Shown here in pieces: positions 6,825 to 46,127 of a stretch of 64,000 nucleotides of DNA; the first letter of the stretch is position 1; every line of letters begins with the position of its first letter. The notes under the pieces were generated by a model. It saw only the letters and a list, made by a program, of their open reading frames with translations. It was not told the origin of the DNA and ran no database searches. Source of the stretch: Candidatus Komeilibacteria bacterium (GTDB taxonomy: Bacteria; Patescibacteriota; Patescibacteriia; UBA1558; UBA10009). Position numbers and translations under genes: made by a program. Location of the stretch: NCBI GenBank assembly GCA_026396575.1, contig JAPLWM010000007.1:11546-75545 (forward strand). The letters are read 5' to 3'.

Positions 6825-7982
6825 ATGTCCAAATACATTTTTACTTCGGAATCGGTAACCGAAGGCCATCCGGATAAAGTTTGCGACCAAATTTCCGACG
6901 CTATTTTAGACGAATTAATCAAACAGGATCCCGATACTCATGCCGGCATCGAATGTTTGGCTACTACCGGTTTGGTCGTGGTAGCCGGCGAGGTTAGAAC
7001 CAAGGGTTATGCCGACATTGCCGGGCTGGTGCGCAAAACCATCAAGGAAATCGGCTATGACAATTCTTCCAACGGTTTTTCCGGCGATGATTGCGGCGTT
7101 ATCGTGGCTTTGGACGAGCAATCGCCTGATATTGCCCAAGGCGTGGATAAGGGCAAGGGCAAGTTTAAAGAGCAGGGCGCCGGCGACCAGGGCTTGATGT
7201 TCGGCTATGCCTGCCGGGAAACCAAAGAGTTAATGCCTTTGCCGCTGATGTTGGCCCATAAAATGGCCAAGCGTTTGGCCCAAGTGCGCAAAAACGGCAC
7301 TTTAAAATATCTTAGGCCGGATGGTAAAACCGAAGTAGCTGTGGAATATAATAATGGCAAGCCCACCAGAATTGATACGGTGGTAGTGGCGGCCCAGCAT
7401 AACGAAAATGTTTCCGAAGCTAAAGTGGCTAAAGATATCATTAAATACGTAGTTAAGCCGATTGGCGGCAAGTATTTGGACGCCAAAACCAGATATTTTA
7501 TCAATGCTACCGGCAAGTTCATTAAAGGCGGTCCGCCGGCCGATGCCGGCTTAACCGGCCGCAAGATCATCGTGGATACTTACGGCGGGCACGGTTCCCA
7601 TGGCGGCGGCTGTTTTTCCGGCAAAGACCCTTCCAAGGTTGACCGCAGCGCTTCGTATATGGCCCGTTACATTGCCAAAAATATCGTGGCTGCCGGACTG
7701 GCCGATAAGTGCGAAGTTCAGCTGGCTTACGTTATCGGCCGGGCCGAACCGGTAAGCGTTTTGGTGCAAACATTCGGCACCGGCAAACTGCCCAATGAGC
7801 GTTTGGAAAAAATCGTGCGCCAATATTTTCCTTTAAAACCCGCCGGCATTATCAAGCACTTAAAACTGCAGCGCCCGATTTACAAGCAAACCGCGGCATA
7901 CGGCCATTTTGGCAGAACGGAAACGGGCTTTACTTGGGAAAAAACGGATTTGGCGGCCAAATTAAGGAAATATTTAAAGTAA
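6825..7982 (+). CDS. metK: S-adenosylmethionine synthetase.
   Basis: The N-terminus [24 protein letters not shown] carries the hallmark GHPDK motif of MetK. 385 aa. Confidence 0.9.
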
Positions 7983-12952: not shown

Positions 12953-13300
12953 ATGAACTATTTGCCTTTGCAGATTATCGTCAGTTTATTCGTTCTCTTG
13001 GTAATTTTTCGGTTAAGCAGAAAATTCAAGGACAGTATTTTAAAAACTTCTGAATTTATCGGCTGGCTGGTTATTTGGGCGGTGGTTTTAGTGGCGTTTT
13101 GGCTGCCCAATACCGCTTCTTACTTGGCTTTATTGGTGGGTATTGGCCGCGGCGTGGATTTGGCGGTTTACTCGGCTATTTTAATTATCTTTTATTTGAT
13201 TTTCCGCCTTTATTTAAAGCACGATAAGCAGCAGCAGCAAATTACCAAAATTATCAGGCATCTGGCTTTAAAAGAGGAGGATGAGAAAAAGCCGCAATAA
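12953..13300 (+). CDS. DUF2304-like small membrane protein (usual partner of GT2 enzymes).
   Basis: 115 aa with 3-4 TM helices and the motif GIGRGVDLAVYSAILIIFYLIFRLY, which I recognise from DUF2304 proteins that routinely follow DPM-like GT2 genes. Confidence 0.55.
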   Translation: MNYLPLQIIVSLFVLLVIFRLSRKFKDSILKTSEFIGWLVIWAVVLVAFWLPNTASYLALLVGIGRGVDLAVYSAILIIFYLIFRLYLKHDKQQQQITKIIRHLALKEEDEKKPQ

Positions 13301-14328
13301 TGAAAAAAGTCGCCATCTTAATCGTTAATTATAACGGCCAGCAGTATCTCCCGGACCTTTTGGAGAGTGTTTTTAAATATAGGCCCCAAAGCGTTTTTTT
13401 TGAAACGATCGTGGTGGATAACGCTTCAATTGATGATTCCGTTGCCTGGCTGGTTAAAAATTATCCGCAAGTTACCTTGCTTAAACAATCGGAAAATTTC
13501 GGTTTTGCCGGAGGCAACAATATCGGCATTAAATACGCTTTAAATAAGGGTTATGATTACGTGATGCTGTTAAATCAGGATACCGTTGTCAGCCAGGGCT
13601 ATTTGGATAAATTAATCGAAAAAATCGAAGCGGTGCCTGCTGCGGCGGCCGTTCAGCCCAAATTATTGCTTTACCCTTTAACCGATTTGGTCAACAGTTT
13701 GGGCAACGTGATTCATTATTTGGGTTTTGGCTATACGGCCGCTAAACCGATTTTAAATAACGAGGTTAATTACTGTTCCGGCGCGGCTTGCTTGATTTCC
13801 GCGGCGGCTTTTAAAAAAGTCGGCTTATTTAACGAAGAGCTGTTTATGTACCATGAGGATTTGGATTTGGGCTGGCGCTTCCGCTTAAGGGGCTATAAAA
13901 ATTTAGTGGAGCCAAAAAGCGCGGTTTACCATAAATACGAATTTTCCCGCAGCATTAAGAAATATTATTTTTTGGAAAGAAACCGCTTTATGGTAATATT
14001 GCAGAATTACAAAATAGGCACCTTGGTTTTAATTTTACCGGCTTTAATTTTAATGGAGCTGGGTTTATTTCTCTTTTCTTTTAGCAACGGCTGGTGGCTG
14101 GAAAAATTGAAAGTTTATCGGTATTTTTTCAGTTTAAAAAATTGGCAAAAAATATTTAAAACTAGAAAACAGATTCAAGGCCATAGAAGCCGGCCGGATC
14201 GCTTGATTGTTAAGGATTTTGCCGGCACCATCGAGCATCAGGAAATTAATTCGCCTTTGGTTGCTTGCTTAGTTAACCCGCTGTTTAACGCTTATTGGCG
14301 GATAATTAAGCCGTTAATTTTATGGTAA
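13300..14328 (+). CDS. Family 2 glycosyltransferase (GT-A, rhamnosyltransferase-like).
   Basis: AILIVNYNGQQYL, VVDNASIDDS and QDT motifs, with C-terminal TM helices. Confidence 0.7.
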   Translation: MKKVAILIVNYNGQQYLPDLLESVFKYRPQSVFFETIVVDNASIDDSVAWLVKNYPQVTLLKQSENFGFAGGNNIGIKYALNKGYDYVMLLNQDTVVSQGYLDKLIEKIEAVPAAAAVQPKLLLYPLTDLVNSLGNVIHYLGFGYTAAKPILNNEVNYCSGAACLISAAAFKKVGLFNEELFMYHEDLDLGWRFRLRGYKNLVEPKSAVYHKYEFSRSIKKYYFLERNRFMVILQNYKIGTLVLILPALILMELGLFLFSFSNGWWLEKLKVYRYFFSLKNWQKIFKTRKQIQGHRSRPDRLIVKDFAGTIEHQEINSPLVACLVNPLFNAYWRIIKPLILW

Positions 14329-15482
14329 TGGAGCAAAAGCTTAAAATCGCCCAAGTGGTTTCCACTTTTCCGCCTTATCGCGGCGGCATGGGCAACGTCG
14401 CTTTTAATTTGGCCGATAATTTAAGCCGCTTGGGCTATGAAGTGACGGTTTTTTCGCCGCAACGGCATTTCGGCCATTTAAATCTTGACAGTTATTTTAA
14501 AATCCATAGATTACAGCCGCAATTAAGGTACGGCAATGCCGCCGTAGTTTTGCAATTATTTTTTTATCTTTTAAAGTATGACATCGTTCATTATCATTAC
14601 CCTTTTTTAGGCGCTTCCTTAGCCACCACTCTGGCTAAGCTGATTAAAGGCAAGAAACAGAAATTAATCGTGCATTATCATATGGATTTAGTCGGCCAGG
14701 GTTGGAAAGCCGCCATTTTTAAAATATACAACTGGTCGCATTTGCGCGGCTTATTTTTAATCGCCGATAAAATTATCGTGACTTCCGATGATTATTTGAC
14801 TAAATCCTTAATTTATCCCCTGGCCCAAAAATATTGGGAGAAATTTTGCATTTTGCCCAACGGCGTTAACCTTGATTATTTTAAGCCAGCTGCCAAAGAT
14901 CCGGCTTTAACCCATAAATACCAGCTTAAAGACAAAAAGGTCATTTTATTCGTTGGCGCCCTGGACAGCGCCCATTATTTTAAGGGCGTCAATTATCTAA
15001 TCAAGGCGATGGAAAATTTAAGCCGAGAGGATATTAAACTGATTATCGTGGGCGAAGGCGAGTTAAGGTCGGTTTATGAAGATATGGTTAATTCTTACGA
15101 TTTAAACAATCGGGTAATTTTTACCGGCTACGTGCCCGACGAAGAATTGGTTAAGTTTTATAATCTGGCCGATATTTTCGTTCTGCCTTCCATTGATAAA
15201 ACCGAGGCCTTTGGCATGGTTTTACTGGAAGCCATGGCTTGCGCCAAGCCGGTGGTGGCTTCCAGCTTGCCGGGCGTGAGGGAAGTGGTGGAAGTAAAAA
15301 AGAACGGCCGTTTGTTCAAGCCTAAAGATGTGGCCGGTTTGGTGGAGCAATTGAACGTTTTGCTTAACCAGCCGGAGTTAGCCAAGGAATACGGGCTATA
15401 CGGCCGGGCCAAGGTGGAGGCCTGTTACAGCTGGTCGAAAATTACCGAGGAGCTGTTAAAAATCTACCAAGCCGATTTATGA
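14322..15482 (+). CDS. Family 4 glycosyltransferase.
   Basis: EAFGMVLLEAMACAKPVVAS (E-x7-E motif) and an N-terminal Glyco_trans_4-like domain. Confidence 0.75.
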   Translation: MVMEQKLKIAQVVSTFPPYRGGMGNVAFNLADNLSRLGYEVTVFSPQRHFGHLNLDSYFKIHRLQPQLRYGNAAVVLQLFFYLLKYDIVHYHYPFLGASLATTLAKLIKGKKQKLIVHYHMDLVGQGWKAAIFKIYNWSHLRGLFLIADKIIVTSDDYLTKSLIYPLAQKYWEKFCILPNGVNLDYFKPAAKDPALTHKYQLKDKKVILFVGALDSAHYFKGVNYLIKAMENLSREDIKLIIVGEGELRSVYEDMVNSYDLNNRVIFTGYVPDEELVKFYNLADIFVLPSIDKTEAFGMVLLEAMACAKPVVASSLPGVREVVEVKKNGRLFKPKDVAGLVEQLNVLLNQPELAKEYGLYGRAKVEACYSWSKITEELLKIYQADL

Positions 15483-16687
15483 GATTTTGCCTGATTAACA
15501 ACTTATATCCGCCCATTGATCGTGGCGGCGCCGAGCGGATTGTGGAATTGATCGCTGAAGAGCTTAAAAAGCGCGGCGAAGTTTTAGTGATTACTTCACA
15601 GCCGGATTGGCTATTGGATCGCCAGAAAATCGGCGATTTTGAAATTTGCCGGCTTAATCCTTTGAATATTTATCATCTTTTGGAAGCTAATAAGCAAACT
15701 GCCAGGCGCAAGCTTCTTTGGCATTTTAATGATTTATTCAAGCGGCCCGTTTTGCATCAGGTTGGAAAAATTTTAAGCGAGAAACCGGTTGATTTTGTTT
15801 TCACCCATAATTTAAAAGGCTTAAGTCTGGGCATTCCCAAGATTATCCGTAAATTGAAATTAACCCAGATCCACACCCTTCACGATTATCAGCTTTTGGA
15901 CCCGCACGGTTCTTTGCACCGCCAGGGCCAAAATTTGGCCTTAAAACACGGCTTTTATCCTTTATACAGGTATTTCACCAGGCAAGCCATAAAATCGCCC
16001 AGCTTGGTTGTTTCGCCCTCCAAATTCGTTTTGGACAAGCACTTGGAGTATGGATTTTTTAAGAAGTCCAAAACCGTTGTTTTGCCTAATCCCGTAGAAT
16101 TGTCTGGTGCTGAATTGCAATTACCCAAGGTTGTTAGCGATAAATTAAGAATTTTATATTTAGGCCAGATCGAACCCCATAAAGGCGTAAAATTTTTAGT
16201 TGATTCTTTTGTAAAATGGAATAATGCCAATGCCGAATTAACCATTGCCGGCGAGGGGAGCGAGTTGCAAAAAATCAATGAATCAATGAATCAAAAAATC
16301 AATGAATCGGCCAGATCAAGGATTAAAATTTTAGGGAAAGTGGCCAGGGAGAAGTTGCCGGAGTTATTCGCCGCCGCCGATTTATTGGTGGTGCCTTCAA
16401 TGTGGTGGGAAAATTCGCCCACGGTAATTTACGAGGCCTACGGTTATCAAGTGCCTGTTTTAGTTGCCAATACCGGCGGAGCTCCGGAATTGGTAAAAAA
16501 CGGAACAACCGGTTTTATTTTTACAGCCGATAATCAGGAAGATTTAATTGATAAATTAAATGCGGCTTTGAAACAAAAGGACAAATTGCCTGAACTTGGC
16601 AAACAGGGTTATGAATTCATTAAACATTTCGAGGTTAAAAATTATGTGGATAAATTATTGGAGTTATGCCAAACTTTGAAGAAATAA
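15479..16687 (+). CDS. Family 4 glycosyltransferase.
   Basis: ENSPTVIYEAYGYQVPVLVANTGGAPELV. It contains an in-frame micro-repeat KINESMNQKINES at 16268-16300. Confidence 0.7.
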   Translation: MRFCLINNLYPPIDRGGAERIVELIAEELKKRGEVLVITSQPDWLLDRQKIGDFEICRLNPLNIYHLLEANKQTARRKLLWHFNDLFKRPVLHQVGKILSEKPVDFVFTHNLKGLSLGIPKIIRKLKLTQIHTLHDYQLLDPHGSLHRQGQNLALKHGFYPLYRYFTRQAIKSPSLVVSPSKFVLDKHLEYGFFKKSKTVVLPNPVELSGAELQLPKVVSDKLRILYLGQIEPHKGVKFLVDSFVKWNNANAELTIAGEGSELQKINESMNQKINESARSRIKILGKVAREKLPELFAAADLLVVPSMWWENSPTVIYEAYGYQVPVLVANTGGAPELVKNGTTGFIFTADNQEDLIDKLNAALKQKDKLPELGKQGYEFIKHFEVKNYVDKLLELCQTLKK

Positions 16688-17562
16688 CAGATCGGCTTAA
16701 AGCCAGGGCCGATTTTAAAGACGGCATTTTTTTATTTTTACCGAAAATCTCCCAATTCCAGCAAAAGGAAATTGTTTTCCATAATCAAATTCATAACTCC
16801 GAAGAAGAAATTCATCAGCTTAATGCTTTAAGGAACCGTTATTACCACGATTATTTTAAAAAACCGTTATTTAAACTGCCGCCAAAGTCCGTAATTTTGG
16901 AAATCGGCGCCGGCTCGGGTTATGATTTATTGCCTTTACTTAAGCAAGGTTATTGTATCATTGCCTCGGATATCAGCTTAGAATCGATTAAGGCCATTAA
17001 ACAAAAAATGGACAGTGATTATCCACAGTTTAAAGAGCGGATCGTTTATTTGGCGGCCGACGGCCAAAATTTGCCCTTAGCCAGCGCTGTCGCGGATGCC
17101 TGTTTTACCGTGGCTTCGCTGCATCATTTTGAAAACCAGCGGGATGCTTTAAAGGAAATGTTACGGGTAACCTCAGCAAACGGCTTATTGATTATGGCTA
17201 TGGAACCGTCCCGCTGGATGATGTTTTTTACCAAGCTGTTTAAAAACAAGGTTGCTTTAAGAATCCGCGATGGCCATTCCGAAGCCGACGAAACCCACCC
17301 GGGCTACTTAAAAAATGACTTAATAAAGTTAATTCCGCCCGGAGCAAAATGGCAGCTTAAAAGAGTTTGGCTGACGCAGGGCTTTTTACATTACGGTTTA
17401 GAGGGAATTTACCGCTTATTCAAACTGAAAAAGAGAATTAAAATCCCTATTGCCTTGGAAGTGATTTTGTTGGGTTTGGATGAAGTTTTATTAAAAATAC
17501 CGGTTATAAATTGGCTGAATTGGCACTGGATTTTAATTATTCGCAAAAATATAGTAGAATAG
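16666..17562 (+). CDS. Class I SAM-dependent methyltransferase.
   Basis: LEIGAGSGYDLLPLL (motif I, GxGxG), an acidic residue after beta-2 (IASDIS) and motif II AADGQNLPL. Confidence 0.7.
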   Translation: MPNFEEITDRLKARADFKDGIFLFLPKISQFQQKEIVFHNQIHNSEEEIHQLNALRNRYYHDYFKKPLFKLPPKSVILEIGAGSGYDLLPLLKQGYCIIASDISLESIKAIKQKMDSDYPQFKERIVYLAADGQNLPLASAVADACFTVASLHHFENQRDALKEMLRVTSANGLLIMAMEPSRWMMFFTKLFKNKVALRIRDGHSEADETHPGYLKNDLIKLIPPGAKWQLKRVWLTQGFLHYGLEGIYRLFKLKKRIKIPIALEVILLGLDEVLLKIPVINWLNWHWILIIRKNIVE

Positions 17563-17568
17563 ACTATA

Positions 17569-17939
17569 TGTTAACCAAAAGGAAAAGCCCGATTCAGGGT
17601 TATGGCATTTTTACCGATAGCCCCATTAAAAAAGGCGAGGCCTTTTATAAAATCCCGAGCGATAAAATTTTATCCCAGAACCACCACCAAGCGGCCAGAA
17701 TCGGCGCTCAGCAATGGGTTTGGGATGAGCAAGTTTTAAATTTCGTCAATCATTCCTGCGAACCCAATGTTTTTATCAATGTGGCCAATTTAACTTTGGT
17801 GGCTTTAAAAAATATCAGGGCAGGCGAAGAAATCACCTGCAATTACGATTTTAGCGAAGGGGAACAGGGCTTTCATTTTATCTGCCAGTGCGGCAGCAAA
17901 TTTTGCGAACAGCAGGTCGGCGAAGTGGTGCGAAATTAA
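17569..17939 (+). CDS. Minimal SET-domain protein (putative protein lysine methyltransferase).
   Basis: GYGIF (GxG), NHSCEPN (the NHSCxPN SAM-binding/catalytic motif), EEITCNYDF (ELxxxY-type) and a post-SET CQCGSKFC (CxCx4C). 123 aa. The start at ATG 17569 lies 7 nt after the methyltransferase stop. Confidence 0.75.
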
Positions 17940-20035
17940 TATTTGAACAGATAATTTTTATTGTCGATAACAAACCAGCGTTGAGCTGATTTTTTTTGTT
18001 CAACAATAATTTTAGCGGCGTTATTCCAGTAGCCGTTCAAAACAAAATAAACGTCCGTCACTCCGGTTAAATATTTAACCGTGGCAATGGTATCGCCGGT
18101 TTTTTGTTTGCCGTAGGCCAAATCCTCGTATAATTGGTAGAGCTGGCCGCCGGTGGGCACCGGGTAAAAGAAAAAATTGTTATAGTAATATTTAAAACCC
18201 AGCTCGGAAATGGCCGCTGCCGAAACCGGCTGGGCGGCCAGCACCACGTACGGCTGGCCGTTTTGCGCCTTTTCAATAAAATTAACGGTTTTTAAATCCG
18301 CGGCCGAAGTGGAGTAGCCGTGGTCTTCCACGATTTTATCAACACGGGGGTAAGCCAGATAAAAAGAACAGGTTAAAGCTAAGGCCATTAAGCAGCCGGC
18401 CAGCAAAATAACGGCGGGCGATTGATGCAACAGTTTTTTAAAAAATAACAGCAGGGCCATAAAAATAAAGGGCAGCAGCAAGTATAAGCTGATTTCTAAA
18501 ACCCGCCTGGGATAGGTAGTCTGCTCGTAAGCCACCAGTGAAAAAAAGGAAATTAAACCCTTAAGCAGCAGGTAATTAACCAGCAGCATAACAAAGCTTA
18601 AGAGATAGATAAAATAATGCTTTAACCTGTGGTTTTTTATAATAAACCAGCAGCCGGCCGTTGCCAAGGCCAAGGCCAGTAAAACGGCATTGTTGCCATA
18701 GCTGTAAATTAAATCGGTTAAGCTTATAAACGGGCGATAGTAAAAATTAAGCGGCACGCCGATGACGGCATTGAAAATATTCTTCAGCCAATCGCTGTTT
18801 AGGGAAATTTTCAATTGGGACAGGGTTTGGGAGTTGATCAAGAAAGCCACGGGCAGGGCCAAACAGCCCAGGATAAAAATTTCCCACAAAATGGAGCGGT
18901 GTAATATTTTCGGCAATTTGAATTTTTGTTCATGATGCTGGTAAAAAAGGAGCAGGCTGAAAAAGAAAAACAAGGGCAGGCCGGCTAAAGGATGAATGGT
19001 TAAGGTTATAAAAACCAAAGCCGCAAGCGGCCACAGGGAAACGCGCGGATGGTTAAGATAGTAAAAAGACAGCAAGACGGTAATTAAAAAGAATAAGTTA
19101 GCCAAGGCCTGGGGCGTAGTTACTATAAAACCGGCAAAAGGAAAGATAAAAATCGCCAAGACTGAAAATAAAACCACTTTTTTGTCGATTTTAAAATTAT
19201 CCTTAAGCGAGTAATAAATCGTAGCCGGCAGATAAATCGCGGCCATAACCGGCACTAACAATTTATCCAAGTATTCGGTGGAAATTTTTAAGAGGCGATA
19301 AAGGAAAATAATAATCCCGTATTGGCCCAGGTAATAAAAGGGTTTGGGCAGCAGCGTGCCGGTTGATAAAATTAAGTTGACATTTTGCCGGTGGATAAAC
19401 GGATCATAGTCAAAGCCCACTTTAAAAATGATCCAGGCTACGGAAAAACCCAAGAAAGCGTGCAGGGAAATAAGGCTTAAAACGCCGGAGCTGGAGGAAA
19501 TTTTAATAATGGCGAATAAAATAAAGCTGGCTAAAAAGTACAGCAGGAAGATTTGAGGTTTTATTGCTTCCCAAGGCGAGCGCAAGGCCGTATCGGTAGC
19601 GCCTTGCCAAATCAGCCAGGCCATCAGCCCGAGGCAGATTAAATAAACCGCGGTTAAAAACGCCACGCTTAAGTTGATTTTCGGCAGTTCCTGGGAAAAA
19701 TCCAGAATCAGAGGATGTTTTCTTATGATAAATAAAGAAACAACGGTAATAACCAGCAGGGCAATGGCCTGGGCCATCAGGTTTATGCTGAACAGGTAAA
19801 AACAGGCGGTTAAGCTCAAGCTGCCCAGCACCAAAACAAACAGCAAACCGTAGATTAAGCGGCAACTTAGAGAGTTTTTAATAAACAGCCAGTTGCCGAT
19901 AACCAGGCCGTTTAAAATCAGCCAGAGCCCGCCAAAAACCAGAGGCAGATAAAAATTCTGCCAGTTAACTAAACTGCCGGCGGCTAAAACCAGGCCGAGT
20001 AAAAGATATCGGGGGAGCTTAATGGTAAATACCAT
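17936..20035 (-). CDS. Large polytopic membrane protein (15 or more TM helices) with a C-terminal extracytoplasmic domain. Possibly a GT-C-like glycosyltransferase or polymerase.
   Basis: 699 aa, almost entirely hydrophobic helices, then a roughly 140 aa soluble tail. No motif I can name with confidence. It is divergently paired with the GT-C gene at 20184. Confidence 0.4.
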   Translation of the reverse strand: MVFTIKLPRYLLLGLVLAAGSLVNWQNFYLPLVFGGLWLILNGLVIGNWLFIKNSLSCRLIYGLLFVLVLGSLSLTACFYLFSINLMAQAIALLVITVVSLFIIRKHPLILDFSQELPKINLSVAFLTAVYLICLGLMAWLIWQGATDTALRSPWEAIKPQIFLLYFLASFILFAIIKISSSSGVLSLISLHAFLGFSVAWIIFKVGFDYDPFIHRQNVNLILSTGTLLPKPFYYLGQYGIIIFLYRLLKISTEYLDKLLVPVMAAIYLPATIYYSLKDNFKIDKKVVLFSVLAIFIFPFAGFIVTTPQALANLFFLITVLLSFYYLNHPRVSLWPLAALVFITLTIHPLAGLPLFFFFSLLLFYQHHEQKFKLPKILHRSILWEIFILGCLALPVAFLINSQTLSQLKISLNSDWLKNIFNAVIGVPLNFYYRPFISLTDLIYSYGNNAVLLALALATAGCWFIIKNHRLKHYFIYLLSFVMLLVNYLLLKGLISFFSLVAYEQTTYPRRVLEISLYLLLPFIFMALLLFFKKLLHQSPAVILLAGCLMALALTCSFYLAYPRVDKIVEDHGYSTSAADLKTVNFIEKAQNGQPYVVLAAQPVSAAAISELGFKYYYNNFFFYPVPTGGQLYQLYEDLAYGKQKTGDTIATVKYLTGVTDVYFVLNGYWNNAAKIIVEQKKSAQRWFVIDNKNYLFKY

Positions 20036-20183
20036 AGCTATATTTTACCACAATTTACCCCAGTTTGTCTTTTAAGGCATTTTCTAGTAAAATTAAGGCA
20101 ATTAATCAGTTAAATTAAGCAGAATTATCTCCATTTTTAAAAGAAAAATCGCGATTGACTGGCAGTTCCTGGTTCTACTCGTT

Positions 20184-21791
20184 TTGGGGCTGGTTTTTAT
20201 TTGCCTATATTCCTATTTGGCTTTGGCTCAAAGCGCTGTTTGGGATAACGCCAAGCCGGTTTTAAATTCGCCGGACGAAACCAGCAATTTGTTTTTCGCC
20301 AAATTGTTCGCCGATCACAATACTTTAAAGTTTCAGGATCCGGCCAATCAAATTGCGAACGGCTTGGTTACGCCGCGCAGCATGAGGGTAATTAACGGTT
20401 TCACCGTTCCGGCCGGTTTTTTGGGCCTGCCCTTGATTTACGGCACTCTGGCCAAATTAACGGGGGAGTGTGCCATTCCGTTTTTTACTCCAATTATCGC
20501 CATCGTCGGCTTGTTGTTTTTTTACTGTTTAATCAAGGAAATTTTTGATAAAAATACGGCTTTTGTGGCCGCGCTCTTTGCCTTTATTCTGCCGCCGTTT
20601 TGGTATTATGCCACTAAGGGTTTAATGCCCAATGTGGCCTTTGTTTCGTTTTTTATCATGGCTTTGTATTTTTTCATTCGCGCCATAAACGGGAAAAAAT
20701 GGTGGCTTTTTGCTTTAGCCGGATTATTTGCCGGCTTGGCTTTAATGGTCAGGACTTCGGAAGTTGTTTGGCTGGCACCGCTGTTCTTGCTATTGGTTGC
20801 CTTTAATTTCCGCAAAGTTAAGTGGGGTTATCTGCTTTTAAGCTTTTTGGTTTTTTTGGCAACTTTGGCGCCGATTTTTTATTTTAACAAGCAAATTTAC
20901 GGCTCGGTTTTTTCGGTGGGCTATTCTTTGGCCATCGATTTATCCAATAAGGATATCTTGGGCCAGAGCTTAACTTTGGCTCAAAAAATCTTTTTACCCT
21001 TCGGTTTTAATCCTCAAGCGGCTTTAAAAAATTTAACCAATTACACGGTGCGGATTTTTCCGCTGTGGTCGTTCTTAATCGGCTTTGGCTGGTTAATCAC
21101 CACCCTCTATTGGCTGACGGCTAAAAAATTGGCCAATCGCAAAGTTTATTTGCTTTACAATCTGTTGTTTTTATTGATCGGCGCTTATTTGGTAATTTTT
21201 TACGGCAGCTGGCTGTTTAGCGATAATCCCGATCCCGAAGCAGTAACCATCGGCACTTCTTACATCAGGTATTGGCTGCCTTTATATTTGTTCAGTTTGC
21301 CGTTTTTGGCTTATTTGTTAATCAATGCTTTTAAGCGTTTTAAATTGGCCGGTCCGGTTTTCATTGTTTATCTGTGGCTTTTATGCGGTTTTACATCCTA
21401 TCAGCTGGTTATGCTTAATGATCAGGAAGGAATTTTAGCGGTGCAAAAAAACATTAACGAATATCAAATTATTGCCACTGAAGTTATCAACCGCACTCCG
21501 GCCAAGGCGGTAATTATTGCCGATCGGCTGGATAAAGTTTTTTTCCCGGACCGGAGCGTAATTTTCCGTTTAAACGTGGCGGCGGATTATGTTAGAATAA
21601 ACGAGCTGATCGCCGGCGGTTATCCCGTTTATTGGTTTAATTTTACCAGAACCGCCGATGACTTGGCTTATTTTAATAAGCAGAGTTTTGAGCCGTATCG
21701 GCTTAAGTTGGGCAACAGCTTGCTTTCTTTTGCCAAGCAAAGTTTGTATCCCGTGGAAATTATCCCAAAGGGATTCCTTCGGGAAAAATAA
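20184..21791 (+). CDS. GT-C superfamily glycosyltransferase (ArnT / PMT / GT39-GT83-like, polyprenyl-phosphate-sugar dependent).
   Basis: TM1 is followed by the first-loop acidic motif NSPDETSNLFFAKL (the DE motif of ArnT/PMT). 11 or more TM helices, then a C-terminal soluble domain. The start is uncertain (TTG at 20184; there is no in-frame ATG upstream). Confidence 0.6.
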   Translation: MGLVFICLYSYLALAQSAVWDNAKPVLNSPDETSNLFFAKLFADHNTLKFQDPANQIANGLVTPRSMRVINGFTVPAGFLGLPLIYGTLAKLTGECAIPFFTPIIAIVGLLFFYCLIKEIFDKNTAFVAALFAFILPPFWYYATKGLMPNVAFVSFFIMALYFFIRAINGKKWWLFALAGLFAGLALMVRTSEVVWLAPLFLLLVAFNFRKVKWGYLLLSFLVFLATLAPIFYFNKQIYGSVFSVGYSLAIDLSNKDILGQSLTLAQKIFLPFGFNPQAALKNLTNYTVRIFPLWSFLIGFGWLITTLYWLTAKKLANRKVYLLYNLLFLLIGAYLVIFYGSWLFSDNPDPEAVTIGTSYIRYWLPLYLFSLPFLAYLLINAFKRFKLAGPVFIVYLWLLCGFTSYQLVMLNDQEGILAVQKNINEYQIIATEVINRTPAKAVIIADRLDKVFFPDRSVIFRLNVAADYVRINELIAGGYPVYWFNFTRTADDLAYFNKQSFEPYRLKLGNSLLSFAKQSLYPVEIIPKGFLREK

Positions 21792-21793
21792 AA

Positions 21794-22600
21794 ATGAAAA
21801 GATTTTTCGATAATTTGTATAAAGCCAGCCGGATAATTATTATTTTGGCGCCTTTTGTTATTTTGGGCTGGTTAATTAAACAGGATCTGGCTTTAACGGG
21901 CCGGTTGGAATTTACTTACGATTTCAGCCACGATTCGCCGGTTATTACCGATTTATTTCCGGCCGGCAGATGTTCCCAAATTTTCCAGGTTAAGGATAAA
22001 CAGGAGTTTTTCCAGCAGATTTTTAATGAGCCGGTTTATTTTGAAGTGCGAATGCCGCAAAAGTTTGATACGGCCACGGTGGAAATAACTTACCAAAATA
22101 TCAAACAGCCGCTGATTCAGCTGGGCCTGGCTACTTTGGGCAGCCAGGATTGGAGCTACGATTTTAAGCCCTTGGAAAATCAAAGCTTGGATAGTTTGAA
22201 TTGGTTCAAAATTGCCGATAGCCAAGGCACCATTTGGCAGCGCCAGAAAAAATATTTGAATCGCGAGCAGTTTAATTCCGAAGCCGATAATTTTGAAAAT
22301 AAAATAGTTTATAATTTTAATTCAAAAGATTCTGAAATTCCTTCAACCATTGATTACTTAGTGAGCGATTACCGCAGTCCTCAAGAAGTTAACGGCTGGA
22401 AAACGGCCACGGTTAAGTTTAACCTGGCCAATGCCCGCCTTAACAACCGCAAAGTGCGATTTGCCATCAGTTCGCCGGGTTTAAACAACGGCAATTACAA
22501 TATTCCGCTTCTAAATATCAAAGTGGTTTTTGCCAAGCAGCCCTTAACTTTTAAAGAAATTATTTTAAAAGGTTTTAATTATTTTAAAGCCCGATTTTAA
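21794..22600 (+). CDS. Hypothetical protein with an N-terminal TM anchor.
   Basis: ORF of 268 aa tightly coupled to the GT-C gene. No recognised motif. Confidence 0.4.
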   Translation: MKRFFDNLYKASRIIIILAPFVILGWLIKQDLALTGRLEFTYDFSHDSPVITDLFPAGRCSQIFQVKDKQEFFQQIFNEPVYFEVRMPQKFDTATVEITYQNIKQPLIQLGLATLGSQDWSYDFKPLENQSLDSLNWFKIADSQGTIWQRQKKYLNREQFNSEADNFENKIVYNFNSKDSEIPSTIDYLVSDYRSPQEVNGWKTATVKFNLANARLNNRKVRFAISSPGLNNGNYNIPLLNIKVVFAKQPLTFKEIILKGFNYFKARF

Positions 22601-22605
22601 ATTTT

Positions 22606-23007
22606 ATGTTTCCCTTTGCTCCCCGCCGCAATTTTTTCCATTATTTGGCCGAATATCTGGTAAAGATAAGCTTAACGCTTTTTAAAGTTTCCACCATTGC
22701 TTTTATTGCTTATTTCGCCTTGGAAAGCTTTAAAACCGGCTTGATCAGCAATTATTTTGATTTAAATCTACTATTAATACTCTCTATATTAAGCGGTTTA
22801 GTAGTCATTTTGTTTTATCGTCCGGAAGCTCAAAAAAAGGAGTTAAAAAATCATTATTTGCTGCATTTTATCTTAATTTTCGTTTTTGCCTTGTTTTTAT
22901 TCTTAAGCTTGCATTTTTTGGGAAAAATTGGTTTAATTATGTCTGTTTTAGGGGCCGCGAGCCTTTATTTGATTATTAATCTTTTTAACCGCCATTATTA
23001 TGATTGA
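22606..23007 (+). CDS. Small integral membrane protein (4 TM helices).
   Basis: 133 aa, hydrophobic throughout. It overlaps the next gene's start. Confidence 0.4.
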   Translation: MFPFAPRRNFFHYLAEYLVKISLTLFKVSTIAFIAYFALESFKTGLISNYFDLNLLLILSILSGLVVILFYRPEAQKKELKNHYLLHFILIFVFALFLFLSLHFLGKIGLIMSVLGAASLYLIINLFNRHYYD

Positions 23008-23498: not shown

Positions 23499-23903
23499 AT
23501 GGATTGCATATTTTGCAAAATAATCGAAGGCGAACTGCCTTGCTATAAAATTTACGAAGATAAGCGGATTATCGCCATTTTGGATATTAATCCGGTTAAC
23601 AAAGGGCATCTGCTCATTTTACCAAAAGAGCATTACCTTAATTTTTTGGAAGCGCCGAAAGACCTGTTAAAGGATCTGGTTTCTGTTTCCCAGGATTTGG
23701 TTAAAGCAACCATGGAAGCGGTTGGCGCCACCGGTTTTAATTTAATTATTAATAATGGCAAGGCCGGCGGACAGCTAGTTGATCATCTGCATTTGCATTT
23801 AATTCCGCGCTTTATCGACGATAAGCTGCATCCTTGGGCCGGCAAGGCCTTAAGTGATGAGGAAATGCGCCGGGTAATGGAAAACATTAAAAAAATCATA
23901 TGA
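23499..23903 (+). CDS. HIT-family nucleotide hydrolase/transferase.
   Basis: Histidine triad HLHLHLIPR (HxHxHxx) plus an N-terminal CxxC. Confidence 0.8.
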   Translation: MDCIFCKIIEGELPCYKIYEDKRIIAILDINPVNKGHLLILPKEHYLNFLEAPKDLLKDLVSVSQDLVKATMEAVGATGFNLIINNGKAGGQLVDHLHLHLIPRFIDDKLHPWAGKALSDEEMRRVMENIKKII

Positions 23904-24874
23904 GCATTATTGTTTCCGGTTCAACCGTTTTTGACAGGATTATGGATTTTCCGGGGCTGTTTAGCGATCATATTCTGCCGCAGGAAATCCATAAATTAAA
24001 TGTCAGCTTCGTGGTTAGGGAATTTAAAGAAACTTTCGGCGGGGCCGCAGCCAACATTGCCTATAATTTGGCTTTGCTAAAAGAAACGCCGCTGTTATAT
24101 TCGGCGGTGGGCAAGGATTTCGGCAAATACGGCGAACGCCTTAAAAAACTGAACATTAATTTAAGCGGGGTAAAAGTTTATCCGCAAACATTTACGGCCA
24201 GCGCCTATATTATTACCGATAAAAGCGATAATCAAATTACCGGCTTTTTCCCGGGCGCTATGAGTTTTTACGCGAGTACGCCCAAAGCCACGGCAAACGA
24301 TTTGGCCATTATTTCACCGGGCAACGCCAACGAAATGCTGGATCTGGCCGAAAATTATTTTAAAAAGAAAGTTCCTTTTATTTTCGATCCTGGCCAGCAG
24401 ATTATCCAGTTTACCAAAAACCAGTTAAGAACGGCTATTAACCAGGCCTCGATTTACATTGTTAACGATTATGAATTGTCTTTGACTAAAAAAATTACCG
24501 GCTGGCCGCAGGAAAAAATTTTAAAAGCGGCTAAAATATTAATTGTTACTTTAGGCAAGCAAGGTTCGGTAATAGAACTGTGCCAAGGCCGCTCTTTGGA
24601 AAGAGTAAAAATAAAGCCGGCTAAAGTTAAAGTTGTTAAAGATCCTACCGGTGCCGGCGACGCTTATCGAGCCGGTTTGATTAAGGGATTATTATTAAGT
24701 AAAATGAAATTGAACACTGAAAATTATTTCAAGCTGCCCTGGATAGAAATCGGGCAGATCGCCAGTTTAGCTTCAGTTTACGCCGTGGAAGAATACGGCA
24801 CCCAGGCCCATAGCTACACTTTGAAAGAATTCAAAGACAGGTATTTTAAAGAATTCAAATCCACAATTTTATAA
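23900..24874 (+). CDS. PfkB-family carbohydrate/nucleoside kinase (candidate adenosine kinase).
   Basis: C-terminal DPTGAGDAYRAGLIKG (the PfkB signature 2). Its position between the HIT protein and AhcY suggests a nucleoside substrate. Confidence 0.65.
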   Translation: MSIIVSGSTVFDRIMDFPGLFSDHILPQEIHKLNVSFVVREFKETFGGAAANIAYNLALLKETPLLYSAVGKDFGKYGERLKKLNINLSGVKVYPQTFTASAYIITDKSDNQITGFFPGAMSFYASTPKATANDLAIISPGNANEMLDLAENYFKKKVPFIFDPGQQIIQFTKNQLRTAINQASIYIVNDYELSLTKKITGWPQEKILKAAKILIVTLGKQGSVIELCQGRSLERVKIKPAKVKVVKDPTGAGDAYRAGLIKGLLLSKMKLNTENYFKLPWIEIGQIASLASVYAVEEYGTQAHSYTLKEFKDRYFKEFKSTIL

Positions 24875-24891
24875 TTAATAATTATTAAGTC

Positions 24892-26148
24892 ATGAAATAC
24901 GACATCAAGAATATCAAATTGGCTATGCTGGGCAAAAGAAAAATAGAATGGGCCGAAAAGCAAATGGACGTTTTGCGGGAAATCGGCTTGAGGTTTTCCA
25001 AAACCAAACCCTTAAAAGGAGTAAAGCTGGCGGCTTGTTTGCACGTTACCGCCGAAACCGCCAATTTAATGAGAACTTTAAAAGCGGGCGGCGCCAGCGT
25101 AGTGCTTTGCGCTTCCAATCCGCTATCAACCCAGGATGAAGTGGCGGCCAGCTTGGTTAAAGATTTCGGCATTCCGGTGTTTGCTAAAAACAACATTGAC
25201 CGGGCCGGCTATTACCGCCATCTTAACAGCGCCTTGGATACCAAGCCCAACATTACCATGGATGATGGCGCCGATTTGGTTTCTTTGATCCATACCAAAA
25301 GAAAAAATTTGGTTAAAAACATTTATGGCGGTTCGGAAGAAACCACTACTGGCGTTATCCGCTTGCGGGCTTTGGCCGCCGAAAAAAAATTGCTTTACCC
25401 GATTGTGGCGGTTAACGATGCAGCCACTAAGCATTTCTTTGATAACCGTTACGGCACCGGCCAATCCACTTTGGACGGCATTATCCGGGCAACCAACATT
25501 TTATTGGCAGGTAAAACAGTGGTGGTGGCCGGCTATGGCTGGTGCGGCCGCGGTTTTGCCCTAAAAGCCCGCGGTATGGGCGCCAAGGCGATTGTTACCG
25601 AAGTTGACCCGGTAAAGGCCTTGGAAGCGGTTATGGACGGCCTGGAGGTTAAAACTATGCTCCAGGCGGCTCCTCTCGGCGATATCTTTTGCACTTTAAC
25701 CGGCGATATCCATATAATCCGCAAAGAGCACTTTTTAAAGATGAAAAACGGTGCCATTGTTTGCAACTCCGGCCACTTTGACGTAGAGCTGGATTTGGTG
25801 GGCTTAAAGAAAATCTCCAAAAAAGTGGAAACGGTCAGGCCGTTTGTTCAGAATTATCATTTAAAAAACGGCAAATCGATCAATGTTTTGGCCGAGGGCC
25901 GTTTGATTAATCTGGCTTCGGCCGAAGGCCATCCGGCTTCGGTAATGGATATGAGTTTTGCCAACCAATCCTTGGCCGCCGAATTCGTGGTAAAAAATTA
26001 CAAGCATTTGGAAAAACGGGTTTACGATGTTACCGATAAAACCGACCAATACATTGCCCGGACAAAATTGCGGGCGATCGGCGTGAGCGTTGATAAATTA
26101 ACAGCCGAACAGGTTAAGTACCTTTCCAGCTGGGAAATGGGTACGTAG
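24892..26148 (+). CDS. ahcY: S-adenosyl-L-homocysteine hydrolase (short archaeal-type form).
   Basis: N-terminal DIKNIKLA...IEWAEKQM and the NAD-binding [14 protein letters not shown]. 418 aa. Confidence 0.8.
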
Positions 26149-26282: not shown

Positions 26283-27284
26283 ATGAATTTACTAGTTACC
26301 GGCGGAGCGGGTTTTGCCGGATCCAACTTTATCAGGCATATCCTAAAGAAGTATCCAAATTACACGATAGTAAATTTGGATAAGTTAACCTATGCCGGCA
26401 ATTTGGATAATTTGCGGGATATTGAAGGCAACTCCAATTATAAATTCATTAAAGGCGATATTGCCGATAAGCGCATTGTTTTTAAGGTTTGCCGGAATTT
26501 CAGGATTGAAGCCGTAATAAATTATGCCGCCGAAACCCACGTGGACCGTTCCATTTTGGATCCCGACGCCTTTGTTAAAACGGATGTTTTGGGCACTTTT
26601 AATATTTTGGAAGCGGTTAAGGAATTTAAGCTTAAAAAATTCGTCCAGATTTCCACCGACGAAGTTTACGGCAGCATAACTAAGGGCAAGTTTACCGAAG
26701 AATCGCCGTTTTTGCCCAATTCGCCTTACAGCGCTTCCAAAGCCAGCGCCGATTTATTGTGCCGTGCTTATCTTAAAACCTATAATTTGCCCATTATCGT
26801 TACCCATTCCTGCAATTTTTACGGGCCTTACCAGTATCCGGAAAAATTAATGCCTTTATTCATCACTAATTTATTGGAAGGCAAAAAAGTGCCGCTTTAT
26901 GGCGACGGTAAAAACGTTCGGGAATGGATTTACGTATTGGACCATTGCTGGGCCATTGATTTCTTATTGCACAAAGGCGCACTTGGCGAAGTTTACAATA
27001 TCGGCACCGGTACCGAAAAAAAGAATCTGGAAATTACCGAAATTATTTTAAAAAGTTTGAATAAAGACAAAAAAATGGTGGAGCATATCGTTGATCGGCC
27101 GGGCCATGATTTAAGGTATGCCGTGGATTGGACCAAGCTTAAAAAAATGGGCTGGAACCCGGAATACGATTTTGACCGGGCCATTAGGGAAACGGTCAGG
27201 TGGTACCAGCAAAACGAATGGTGGTGGAAAAAGCTTAAAAGCGGCGCTTATTTGGAATATTATAAAAAACAGTACCGTTTATGA
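26283..27284 (+). CDS. rmlB: dTDP-glucose 4,6-dehydratase.
   Basis: MNLLVTGGAGFAGSNF, NLDKLTYAGN, and Y...K with DEVYG. Confidence 0.8.
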   Translation: MNLLVTGGAGFAGSNFIRHILKKYPNYTIVNLDKLTYAGNLDNLRDIEGNSNYKFIKGDIADKRIVFKVCRNFRIEAVINYAAETHVDRSILDPDAFVKTDVLGTFNILEAVKEFKLKKFVQISTDEVYGSITKGKFTEESPFLPNSPYSASKASADLLCRAYLKTYNLPIIVTHSCNFYGPYQYPEKLMPLFITNLLEGKKVPLYGDGKNVREWIYVLDHCWAIDFLLHKGALGEVYNIGTGTEKKNLEITEIILKSLNKDKKMVEHIVDRPGHDLRYAVDWTKLKKMGWNPEYDFDRAIRETVRWYQQNEWWWKKLKSGAYLEYYKKQYRL

Positions 27285-27934
27285 GAAAAGTTTTACCCTG
27301 CATTACCACTACTAAAAATACTTGGCGCCAACAGCTAAAAGATATTAATCGGTTAAAAATCAAGGAAGTCGCCGTTTTTTTGACAATGCTGGATTATGCC
27401 GGCCGAAAGGAGTTTTATAAAAAATTAAAAAAATCAACGATTGTTTCCATTCCGCATTTGCACATTAGAAACGATTTTACTCCGGCTGAAATAGATTTTT
27501 TCTATCAAAACTATAAAACCAGGCAATTCAACACTCACGGCAACTATTTGGATAATTTTAGAGCCAATCCTTATTTTAAAAAATATTTTTCGTTGGAAAC
27601 GACAACTTGGTTTACTTTGGAATATTTAAAACAGCTGAACAATCATTATTGTTTGGATTTAGCTCATTATTTTTCTTATCGAGTTCATTTAATCAAGTGG
27701 AACATTGTTAAAATAATCGATCAGAAAATAAAACAGGGGATCTTGCCTTTGGCCAATCATTTAAGCGGTTTTAGCAAAGCCACTCAAGACACTCATTTTG
27801 CCAGCAACATTAATTATTTTGATTATTTAAAAAGAACGCCGAAAAAATATTTGGCCAAGATTATGGCTTTGGAATTGGAAAATTCCATACCGGAACAGCT
27901 GGAATTTATTAAATACATTAAAACATTGTTATGA
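27281..27934 (+). CDS. Hypothetical protein embedded in the rml cluster.
   Basis: 217 aa ORF start/stop-coupled on both sides (ATGA overlaps). No recognised motif. Confidence 0.4.
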   Translation: MRKVLPCITTTKNTWRQQLKDINRLKIKEVAVFLTMLDYAGRKEFYKKLKKSTIVSIPHLHIRNDFTPAEIDFFYQNYKTRQFNTHGNYLDNFRANPYFKKYFSLETTTWFTLEYLKQLNNHYCLDLAHYFSYRVHLIKWNIVKIIDQKIKQGILPLANHLSGFSKATQDTHFASNINYFDYLKRTPKKYLAKIMALELENSIPEQLEFIKYIKTLL

Positions 27935-28753: not shown

Positions 28754-29107
28754 ATGTCTAAAGAAACTTTACCGCAATTACCCACTAACGAGAATTTAGT
28801 TTCCTTAAATAATATTTTCGAATTAAGACGGCTTTTTGCGGCAGCTAAAATTGAAGCTAAATTCAATCAAATGCCGGAAGATGCCGTTTGGGAAGAAATT
28901 ATTGAAGAAATGAGCGAACCGGATTTGTTAAAAGAAAGAAAACTGGGGCTGTTTACCCAAGCTATCGAAATTTTAGAGCGAAAAATTGAATGGTTCAGTT
29001 ATCCGCAAAACCGCGGAGCAATGACTCCCGATGAATTGGAAAAACTTAAAGCGACTTTGGAAAAACTTAAAGCGACTTTGGAAAAAATCAAATCCAATAA
29101 TTTATGA
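28754..29107 (+). CDS. Hypothetical small coiled-coil protein.
   Basis: 117 aa. The C-terminus contains the in-frame duplicated heptad-like EKLKATLEKLKATLEK, encoded by a 21-bp tandem duplication. Confidence 0.35.
   Translation: MSKETLPQLPTNENLVSLNNIFELRRLFAAAKIEAKFNQMPEDAVWEEIIEEMSEPDLLKERKLGLFTQAIEILERKIEWFSYPQNRGAMTPDELEKLKATLEKLKATLEKIKSNNL
29040..29081 (+). repeat. Perfect 21-bp tandem duplication (2 copies) inside a coding sequence.
   Basis: aaaaacttaaagcgactttgg appears twice in tandem, in frame. Confidence 0.8.
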
Positions 29108-44148: not shown

Positions 44149-45063
44149 ATGCAAGAAAATTGGGGCATCATCGGGCATGAAGAAATCGTTAATTTTTTGG
44201 AACAGTCGCTCTACAAAAATCGGCTGGCCGGCACTTATTTATTCCACGGTTTGCCGCATTTGGGCAAAACCGCGGTCGCGGAAAAATTTGCCGAGAAATT
44301 ATTGGGTTCCGCCTGGCCGACTACCGAATTGTACAAGCTGGAAATTTTGGAAGATAAAAAGGATATCGGCATCGAACAGGTCAGGGAATGGCGCCGCTCC
44401 TTGGGTTTTAAAGCCTTTACCGATCAGTATAAAGTGGGCATTATTTACGGCGCGGAAAAACTTAATCGCGAATCGGGCAACGCCCTGCTAAAAACCATCG
44501 AAGAACCTTCGCCCAAAACGGTTTTAATTCTGATCGTTTCCGATTCCCAAACTTTATTGCCGACCATTATTTCCCGCTGCCAAACCATTAAGTTTTTGCC
44601 CGTTGCCCAAAACACATTGCATCGGGGCTTGCTGGCCAAAGCGGAGTTGGATAAGAAAAAATTGAATTTAATCGAATCTTTAGCACAAGGACGGCCCGGT
44701 TTGGCCATTCAACTGGCGAAGAATGAAGATTTTTTTAATGAGTATGTCCAGGGCGAGGATTTGGCCGTTAAAGTTTTAGGCAGTCCGCTGGCAACGCGTT
44801 GGCAGCTGTTGGACGGATTGCTGGAACCGCTGGAAGAAGCGCGCGCCAAGGTCCAAGCGGCTTTAAATTTTTTAGCCCATTTGGAAAACGTTTTAAGAAG
44901 CAATTTATTGGCGCATTACTCGTCCGCGCCTGCGTCCGTCCGGCCGGCCTTAAATCCCGGCGGTTTAATCAAGCTTTTTTCCTTAATCAATCTGTCGCGC
45001 CGCTCCTTGGCCGGCAACGTTCAACCGCGTTTAGTTTTAGAAAATTTAATCATCAATATATGA
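44149..45063 (+). CDS. holB: DNA polymerase III clamp-loader subunit delta prime.
   Basis: AAA+ fold with a degenerate Walker A (GLPHLGKT), the sensor/SRC-like block SGNALLKTIEEP and TIISRCQ. At 304 aa the size fits delta prime. Confidence 0.7.
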   Translation: MQENWGIIGHEEIVNFLEQSLYKNRLAGTYLFHGLPHLGKTAVAEKFAEKLLGSAWPTTELYKLEILEDKKDIGIEQVREWRRSLGFKAFTDQYKVGIIYGAEKLNRESGNALLKTIEEPSPKTVLILIVSDSQTLLPTIISRCQTIKFLPVAQNTLHRGLLAKAELDKKKLNLIESLAQGRPGLAIQLAKNEDFFNEYVQGEDLAVKVLGSPLATRWQLLDGLLEPLEEARAKVQAALNFLAHLENVLRSNLLAHYSSAPASVRPALNPGGLIKLFSLINLSRRSLAGNVQPRLVLENLIINI

Positions 45064-46127
45064 AGAACAAATTTTTAATTCCCGCGCTGTTCAGCTTAAT
45101 GGTTTTGGCTTTGTCCGGCTGCATTATCAACCTTAAAACCAGCAATGCTTCAGACGGCGGAATTTTTAAATCGGCCGATTTGGGCGACCATTGGGCCCAG
45201 ATAACTTCCGTTTACCACGTCGGTGATGTAGCTTATTCCTTCGCTTCTTACGACGCTACCGCCTTGGTTATGGATCCTACCGACAATAAAGCCATCTATT
45301 TCGGCACCGCCGACCAGGGCCTGTTTTATACCTATAACGGCGGCACTGGCTGGCAGCAAACTTTAACCGGCTCGGGCCCGATTAATGCCCTGGCTGTTAG
45401 CCCCAAAGAGCGCTGCATTATTTACGCGGCCCTGGGCAATCGGCTTTACAAAACCGTGGATTGCAGCCGCCATTGGAGCTATCAGCTGATTGAAACCAGG
45501 GAAGACCCCAATAATCAAATTAACGCGGTGGCGGTTGACAGTTTTAATACCAATATTGTTTATGCCGGCACTTCCGGCCGGGGCCTGTTTAGGAGCGACG
45601 ACAGCGGCTTTTCCTGGCACGCGGTTAAATTTTTCGACGATCGGATCCTGGATATTTTAATCAATCAAGCCGATTCGCGGATTATTTACGCGGCTACCGC
45701 TTTAAAAGGAATTTTTAAAACCACGGACGCCGGCGTTACCTGGCAGCCGCTGTTTTCCGACCAGCTGATCAAGGATAAAGAAAATCTTTTGGCTTACCGC
45801 GCTTTGATTTTGGATCCTACGGTGCCTGACGGCTTGCTTTATGCTTCCCAATACGGCTTTTTAATGAGAAGCAAGGACGGCGGCGCCAGCTGGCAGGATA
45901 TTAAATTATTAACGCCGCCCAGCGCCACTTTGATTTATTCCCTGGCCATTAACCCCAAAGACGGCAATAATTTGTTTTACGGCACGGCCAAGGCCTTGTA
46001 TCGCAGCGTGGATAACGGCGCTAATTGGATTACCCGGGTTTTGCCTACGGCCCGCGCCGCCAAATTTATCCTCCTGGATCCGCAGGCTGACAATACCTTG
46101 TATTTAGGGGTAAAAATAGTTCAATAA
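45060..46127 (+). CDS. Lipoprotein with BNR/Asp-box-like beta-propeller repeats (Ycf48/sialidase-fold-like).
   Basis: Lipobox LALSGC after the signal peptide. Repeated S/T-x-D-x-G-x-T/S-W motifs (DAGVTWQ, DGGASWQ, DNGANW, DSGFSWH, TGWQQ). Its ATG overlaps the holB stop; the long N-terminal extension in the ORF track is spurious. Confidence 0.6.
   Translation: MKNKFLIPALFSLMVLALSGCIINLKTSNASDGGIFKSADLGDHWAQITSVYHVGDVAYSFASYDATALVMDPTDNKAIYFGTADQGLFYTYNGGTGWQQTLTGSGPINALAVSPKERCIIYAALGNRLYKTVDCSRHWSYQLIETREDPNNQINAVAVDSFNTNIVYAGTSGRGLFRSDDSGFSWHAVKFFDDRILDILINQADSRIIYAATALKGIFKTTDAGVTWQPLFSDQLIKDKENLLAYRALILDPTVPDGLLYASQYGFLMRSKDGGASWQDIKLLTPPSATLIYSLAINPKDGNNLFYGTAKALYRSVDNGANWITRVLPTARAAKFILLDPQADNTLYLGVKIVQ

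Follow-up and report, generated by a model that had tools for sequence, protein, structure and literature searches.

Background

The SET enzyme BurB of Burkholderia thailandensis converts free methionine to S-methylmethionine (SMM), and the methionine is bound via main-chain contacts (PMC12542666). The BurB locus is a polyketide/dimethylsulfoniopropionate (DMSP) cluster with BurI, BurD and BurE, where an SMM decarboxylase, an aminotransferase and a dehydrogenase are encoded (PMC12542666). Two other prokaryotic SET proteins act on proteins of their own cell. Namely, Gö1-SET from Methanosarcina mazei methylates MC1-alpha, and cpnSET from Chlamydia pneumoniae methylates Hc1 (PMC3980110). Here we analyzed a small SET-domain methyltransferase gene located in a stretch of 64,000 nucleotides (contig JAPLWM010000007.1, positions 11,546 to 75,545) from a Candidatus Komeilibacteria bacterium; the whole stretch is called the window below. 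The Komeilibacteria are within the Patescibacteria, or candidate phyla radiation (CPR), group. We found that the encoded protein belonged to a clade of SET proteins of about 120 residues that was common to CPR bacteria and DPANN archaea, and that a neighboring branch of this clade was tied to racemases and class-I methyltransferases. This suggested, tentatively, that the enzyme may act on a free amino acid or a small amine.

A minimal SET protein of the CPR/DPANN clade

The SET gene was real and under selection, and its product had the SET fold with intact motifs (Table 1). The earlier note on this DNA had placed a 123-residue open reading frame (ORF) at positions 17,569-17,939. The ORF did exist, but its ATG was located at 17,568, since the frame opened at 17,569 gave four stop codons on translation. 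This ATG was favored over an in-frame TTG upstream (17,511) because the N-termini of the homologues lined up with M1. The Pfam SET model PF00856, whose gathering score is 22.4, matched residues 11-93 with 55.2 bits (E 1.1e-14), and a chance match was dismissed on this ground.

All four SET motifs that had been read from the sequence were present and were either conserved or invariant among the relatives. In the alignment of 34 clade members, F15, N61, C64, E88, Y93, C106, C108 and C113 were invariant, and G11, G13 and H62 were at least 90% conserved. The predicted structure had the SET beta-fold, and its best structural match by two methods was BurB (PDB 9l4t/9l4v), itself a SET enzyme, with 21-24% identity to the window protein. 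Both checks that the earlier note had proposed for the fold, the Pfam search and the structure prediction, came out in its favor. The predicted local distance difference test (pLDDT) score was lower, at 64-73, over residues 100-120, that is, across the post-SET cysteine region, where C106, C108 and C113 would form a putative zinc site together with C64. As had been expected, the domain scan and the model contained the SET catalytic core with its post-SET cysteine cluster and no targeting domain. The N-terminus (MLTKRKSPIQGYG) had neither a signal peptide nor an extension and led directly into the first SET strand.

Judging from these residues, the product is likely to be an S-adenosylmethionine (SAM)-dependent methyltransferase with a SET active site. 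C91 was aligned to the position of Y3942 of MLL1, the tyrosine of the Phe/Tyr switch. If the target were a lysine, then a cysteine at this position would predict a roomy site allowing multiple methylations. The GC content of the gene (0.439) was the same as that of the window, and a recent horizontal transfer, which we had considered, left no signal in the composition. A protein identical to the product was already present in NCBI, encoded on a 148-kb contig and annotated as a SET-domain methyltransferase / protein-lysine N-methyltransferase. As a further prokaryotic SET already named by the NCBI pipeline, the window gene alone is routine.

It had also been stated that SET proteins are sporadic in bacteria, which was outdated: prokaryotes commonly have small SET proteins. 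A motif scan of the GTDB species genomes gave at least 539 confirmed SET relatives across many phyla, and 3216 clusters (50% identity) matched at E<=1e-3 when 1.84 billion cluster representatives were searched exhaustively with phmmer. There were also giant proteins with 6-9 SET domains in tandem, namely P0104 (1449 residues), P0107 (1479), P0109 (1415) and P0149 (855), where each SET domain shared about 31-34% identity with that of the window.

The short CPR/DPANN proteins, called mini-SETs below, formed a group of their own. In a neighbor-joining tree (123 columns, 100 bootstraps), they were split from the other prokaryotic SETs with 84% support. The window protein possessed all the residues characteristic of this clade, namely S7, Y27, P30, A43, D53 and T/S96-E97, with S96 in place of the threonine. 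The Komeilibacteria SETs made up their own branch in the tree (100% bootstrap) beside a large and poorly resolved branch, which we call the sister branch.

Racemases and methyltransferases linked to the sister branch

We surveyed the multidomain proteins among the best cluster representatives, whose SET domains were 43-50% identical to that of the window. Four of these fusions joined an Asp/Glu-racemase domain (PF01177) to a SET domain, one had the reverse order (SET-racemase), and one joined a class-I methyltransferase to a SET domain. Follow-up searches gave four further racemase-SET fusion clusters as well as 14 methyltransferase-SET fusion clusters, the latter from Patescibacteria and a Woesearchaeota genome. 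The fused racemase domains retained the CNTA and GCTE motifs, which we take to be the two catalytic-cysteine motifs of aspartate racemases.

The same partners were also found as adjacent genes. At the Berkelbacteria locus L006 (5992-7018), the best GTDB match, and at the Woesearchaeota locus L091 (2028-3120), the SET gene was followed after 1 nt by a racemase gene. Moreover, another Woesearchaeota locus (L095, 6001-7700) had a methyltransferase-SET fusion gene that overlapped the racemase gene by 4 nt, with all three functions in one operon, and a racemase-SET fusion was located in a bacterial, CPR-like context at L092. Neither a racemase nor a methyltransferase partner was found at L001-L005 and L007-L009. 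For Asp/Glu-type racemases, only free small molecules are known as substrates. Our searches of the accessible literature found no description of a SET-racemase association, nor of SET proteins in CPR.

A few other observations were made at these loci and proteins. A class-I methyltransferase gene of the Methyltransf_24 family was located about 1.5 kb upstream of a lone SET gene, on the opposite strand, in two Woesearchaeota genomes (L001, 3863-4531; L004, 4553-5221, minus strand), which count as one observation because both genomes share synteny. The SET domain of P0343 (306 residues) was fused to His_Phos_1, a histidine phosphatase or phosphoglycerate-mutase-like domain, that is, to another small-molecule-type partner of the SET clade. 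A 149-residue ORF upstream of the L090 racemase was tested as a divergent SET and turned out not to be one.

A small molecule or a protein as the acceptor

Our preferred reading, held tentatively and short of being called probable, was that the acceptor of the window enzyme is a free amino acid or a small amine. Two lines of evidence pointed to it: the best structural match was BurB, and the sister branch was tied to racemases in bacteria as well as in archaea, through fusions in both orders and through operons. In this case, the gene product would be a minimal but active SAM-dependent methyltransferase of the SET fold (class V), in which SAM would be held by the GxG and NH motifs, the methyl-transfer site would be shaped by Y93, and a post-SET zinc knuckle from C64, C106, C108 and C113 would close the acceptor channel. 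The acceptor would be a small metabolite bearing an amine or a thioether, with a free amino acid, as used by BurB, being the likeliest, and not a lysine of a chromatin or ribosomal protein. The class-I methyltransferase encoded next to the SET gene would then supply another methylation step of this small pathway.

A broader version of this proposal seemed to us possible but on the unlikely side. Namely, the CPR/DPANN mini-SETs, including that of the window, may serve as the methylating step of a hitherto undescribed small-molecule module, in which the SET protein would work with an Asp/Glu-type racemase and a class-I methyltransferase, rather than as modifiers of proteins or chromatin. The product of such a module would be a methylated amino-acid derivative, which may be D-configured; an N-methyl-D-amino acid, a betaine and a sulfonium compound are examples.

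A number of points weighed against a small-molecule acceptor. Every member linked to a racemase or a methyltransferase fell in the sister branch, outside the Komeilibacteria branch, and the ORFs of the window included no racemase. The Komeilibacteria SETs also had another loop after Y93 (SEGEQGFHF in the window protein versus TE-xxGxKV) and another C-terminal tail. The window methyltransferase had only a generic similarity to the fused methyltransferase family (27% identity, E 0.012, 21 bits); it was therefore rejected as an orthologue of the fused domain, and its link to the SET gene was analogous, not orthologous, to the fusions. The annotated window ORFs included no BurI-, BurD- or BurE-like gene. 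The clade profile was nearer to the KMT2/MLL enzymes than to BurB when compared with the PDB (KMT2A 3.3e-17, KMT2B 1.5e-16, KMT2D 2.2e-14, BurB 8.3e-13). Since BurB binds methionine via its main chain, a pocket for a small molecule cannot be confirmed from any signature in the sequence. Finally, nearly all characterized SETs, including Gö1-SET and cpnSET, methylate protein lysines, and those from prokaryotes act mostly on proteins (PMC3980110).

The strongest alternative was accordingly that the NCBI name is correct and the gene encodes a protein-lysine N-methyltransferase acting in the canonical SET manner on an endogenous nucleoid-associated, ribosomal or surface protein, whose lysine would enter the channel opposite SAM. 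The proximity of the upstream methyltransferase and the glycan genes would then be incidental, or it would mean that a surface protein is modified by them jointly. Besides the precedent of the characterized enzymes, the sequence comparisons spoke for a protein target: the SET and post-SET domains of MLL1/KMT2A were the best phmmer match among the solved structures (3.9e-9, followed by BurB with 2.2e-8), the profile match to KMT2A was near full length and included the equivalents of S7, I-G and D53, and the post-SET cysteine cluster is typical of histone lysine methyltransferases. The viral enzyme vSET shows that a SET protein of about 119 residues can be a complete histone lysine methyltransferase. 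On the other hand, no HU, histone-like or MC1 gene was linked to the SET gene either in the window or at the 85 homologous loci described below, and the repeated ties of the sister clade to racemases, by fusion and within operons, would be hard to explain with a protein target. The best structural match, moreover, was a small-molecule enzyme. The helical SET-I insertion of MLL1, which helps to bind the peptide, was also missing: the alignment had insertions of 3-9 residues on the MLL1 side, and in the window protein strand 3 was separated from NHSC by only about 25 residues. On balance, we rated a protein lysine almost as high as a small molecule, without calling either of them probable.

The upstream methyltransferase and the gene neighborhood

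The SET gene was the final gene of a long co-directional array (Table 1). The class-I methyltransferase encoded directly upstream of it matched small-molecule methyltransferases of NCBIfam at a sub-threshold level only. The same gene order was kept in two relatives, L087 (76% SET identity, 14-nt spacer) and L088 (64%, 51-nt spacer), and the two genes of the window are likely to be cotranscribed. The earlier note had described them as translationally coupled. The link itself was partly supported by the recurrent adjacency, but coupling was not demonstrated, because the genes did not overlap, no Shine-Dalgarno-like sequence was seen by eye before the SET ATG, and the spacing was not conserved between the window and these relatives. 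A scan of positions 13,000-20,400 for promoters and terminators gave nothing above shuffled controls. The closest relative was L086, with 83% identity. Its available 37 nt upstream of the SET ATG were unrelated to the methyltransferase, which may reflect a different upstream neighbor or a contig-end artifact. Positions 1-37 of L086 contained a perfect 9-bp GC-rich hairpin, CCCCGCGGC TT GCCGCGGGG. On the other side of the SET gene, the convergent gene for a multi-pass membrane protein was retained in L086 and L087 with 85-90% identity.

The earlier note had suggested that the methyltransferase, the SET gene, metK and ahcY form one dedicated module of methylation and SAM recycling within the glycan locus. 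We considered this very improbable. All four genes were indeed present in the window, the first three of them in the array (metK, methyltransferase, SET) shared a strand, and the order of methyltransferase and SET was conserved in close relatives. However, at least nine glycan genes separated metK from the SET gene (9.6 kb), and ahcY was located 7 kb downstream, past the convergent gene and the strand switch. CPR genomes crowd unrelated genes into long same-strand arrays, which counts against reading the shared strand as a module. Conservation was assessed by phmmer searches of every window protein against the ORFs within 6 kb on either side of the SET homologue at 85 loci, which came from Woesearchaeota, a JGI contig and 80 GTDB species genomes of many phyla. 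Within this distance, none of the 85 loci had metK, ahcY or a methyltransferase orthologous to that of the window, and glycan genes were found at only one of them. Since the linkage was not conserved, the metK/ahcY module was unsupported and largely refuted; of the synteny that the earlier note had suggested checking, the methyltransferase neighbor of L087 and L088 held up and the glycan genes did not.

Least probable of all was a secreted effector methylating host histones or nucleoid proteins in the manner of Chlamydia NUE and Legionella RomA/LegAS4. Organisms of the CPR and DPANN groups live as episymbionts, but most CPR hosts are bacteria and lack histones, the racemase and methyltransferase linkages indicate cytoplasmic metabolism, and we rated this reading as hardly credible because there was no signal sequence or N-terminal extension and no secretion gene next to the SET gene.

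All-against-all clustering of the neighbor ORFs at the 85 loci did not give a universal SET partner. Recurrence was limited to ABC ATPases, histidine kinases and a PIF1-like helicase, and none of these families was general. A histidine kinase gene was located directly 3' of the SET gene in Saccharibacteria (L010, L014, L025, L033). A PIF1/RecD-like helicase was found no more than 2-3 kb from the SET gene in two of these (L014, L033) and in Bacteroidota of the Chitinophagaceae/Sphingobacteriales (L022, L029, L040, L059, L075). These neighbors could be due to lineage synteny or to a weak link.

The rest of the window resembled a typical CPR chromosome with glycan and housekeeping genes. Genes for a HIT-family hydrolase (23,499-23,903), a PfkB-family kinase (23,900-24,874) and ahcY were tightly packed on the plus strand between 23,499 and 26,148. 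If the PfkB-family protein acts as an adenosine kinase, the three genes would make up a small unit for the salvage of S-adenosylhomocysteine and adenosine, separate from the SET gene. Four plus-strand ORFs inside the glycan locus (21,794-22,600, 22,606-23,007, 27,281-27,934 and 28,754-29,107) had no Pfam or NCBIfam family. Two full-length MreB paralogues (49,432-50,472 and 54,206-55,219, plus strand) flanked mreC, a PBP2-like transpeptidase gene and greA. Additionally, the listed plus-strand ORFs 44,149-45,063 (DNA polymerase III delta'-like) and 44,799-46,127 (BNR/sortilin-repeat) overlapped by about 265 nt, and the TTG start of the latter was probably called too far upstream.

Table 1. Positions of the SET gene, its motifs and the related genes in the window
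Feature	Position	Strand	Remarks
metK	6825..7982	+	9.6 kb upstream of the SET gene
Class-I SAM-dependent methyltransferase, 298 residues	16666..17562	+	Methyltransf_11, E 1.3e-16; directly upstream of the SET gene, co-directional
Spacer of 5 nt, ACTAT	17563..17567	+	From the methyltransferase stop TAG to the SET ATG; read from the sequence
SET-domain methyltransferase gene	17568..17939	+	123 codons and TAA
GxG SAM-binding motif, G11-Y-G13-I-F15	17598..17612	+	Aligns to MLL1 HGRGLF
NHSCEPN motif, N61-N67	17748..17768	+	Same as MLL1 NHSCEPN; C64 is the first predicted zinc ligand
EEITCNY motif, E87-Y93	17826..17846	+	Aligns to MLL1 GEELTYDY; Y93 is the conserved active-site tyrosine
Post-SET CxCxxxxC, C106, C108 and C113	17883..17906	+	Aligns to MLL1 CNCGAKKC
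Multi-pass membrane protein, 699 residues, convergent	17936..20035	-	No Pfam/NCBIfam match; the stop codons of this gene and the SET gene overlap (TTAA)
ahcY (S-adenosylhomocysteine hydrolase)	24892..26148	+	7 kb downstream of the SET gene, beyond the strand switch

Significance and comparison with known SET enzymes

The default name of protein-lysine N-methyltransferase may be wrong for the entire CPR/DPANN clade. It is this possibility, together with the clade-level linkage to racemases and methyltransferases, that makes a follow-up worthwhile. Confirmation of the association would extend the chemistry known for prokaryotic SET proteins and would point to a new metabolite in organisms whose metabolism is very reduced. 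It would be relevant, too, to the idea that SET proteins originated in prokaryotes before their recruitment to chromatin.

Gö1-SET and cpnSET, as stand-alone prokaryotic SETs with endogenous protein targets, were the precedent for a protein-lysine acceptor (PMC3980110). No MC1 or Hc1 homologue was linked to the window SET, and racemase and methyltransferase partners such as those of the clade are not reported for either enzyme. The PBCV-1 enzyme vSET (119 residues, an H3K27 methyltransferase) had a similar minimal size and also no accessory domains, and its match to the window protein was weak, covering residues 5-94.

KMT2A/MLL1, an H3K4 methyltransferase, was the best sequence relative among the solved structures and shared NHSCEPN, GEE(I/L)TxxY and the post-SET CxCxxxxC with the window protein. 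In comparison to MLL1, the window protein had neither the SET-I insertion nor the flanking domains, it had a cysteine in place of the Phe/Tyr-switch tyrosine, and it came from a bacterium without histones and without WRAD-type partners.

BurB was larger (172 residues versus 123) and tetrameric, and its sequence match ranked below those of the KMT2 enzymes, with a similarity under the orthology level. By offset arithmetic, Y93 corresponded to Tyr124 of BurB; the residue matches were obtained in this way because BurB was absent from the top alignments, also with a truncated query. A Streptomyces SET protein (L012), considered as a BurB/MSMT orthologue, was not BurB-like. What BurB and the window protein had in common was the compact SET architecture, and if the CPR/DPANN mini-SETs do belong to a small-molecule module, then BurB-like chemistry would rank among the old and widely distributed functions of the SET fold.
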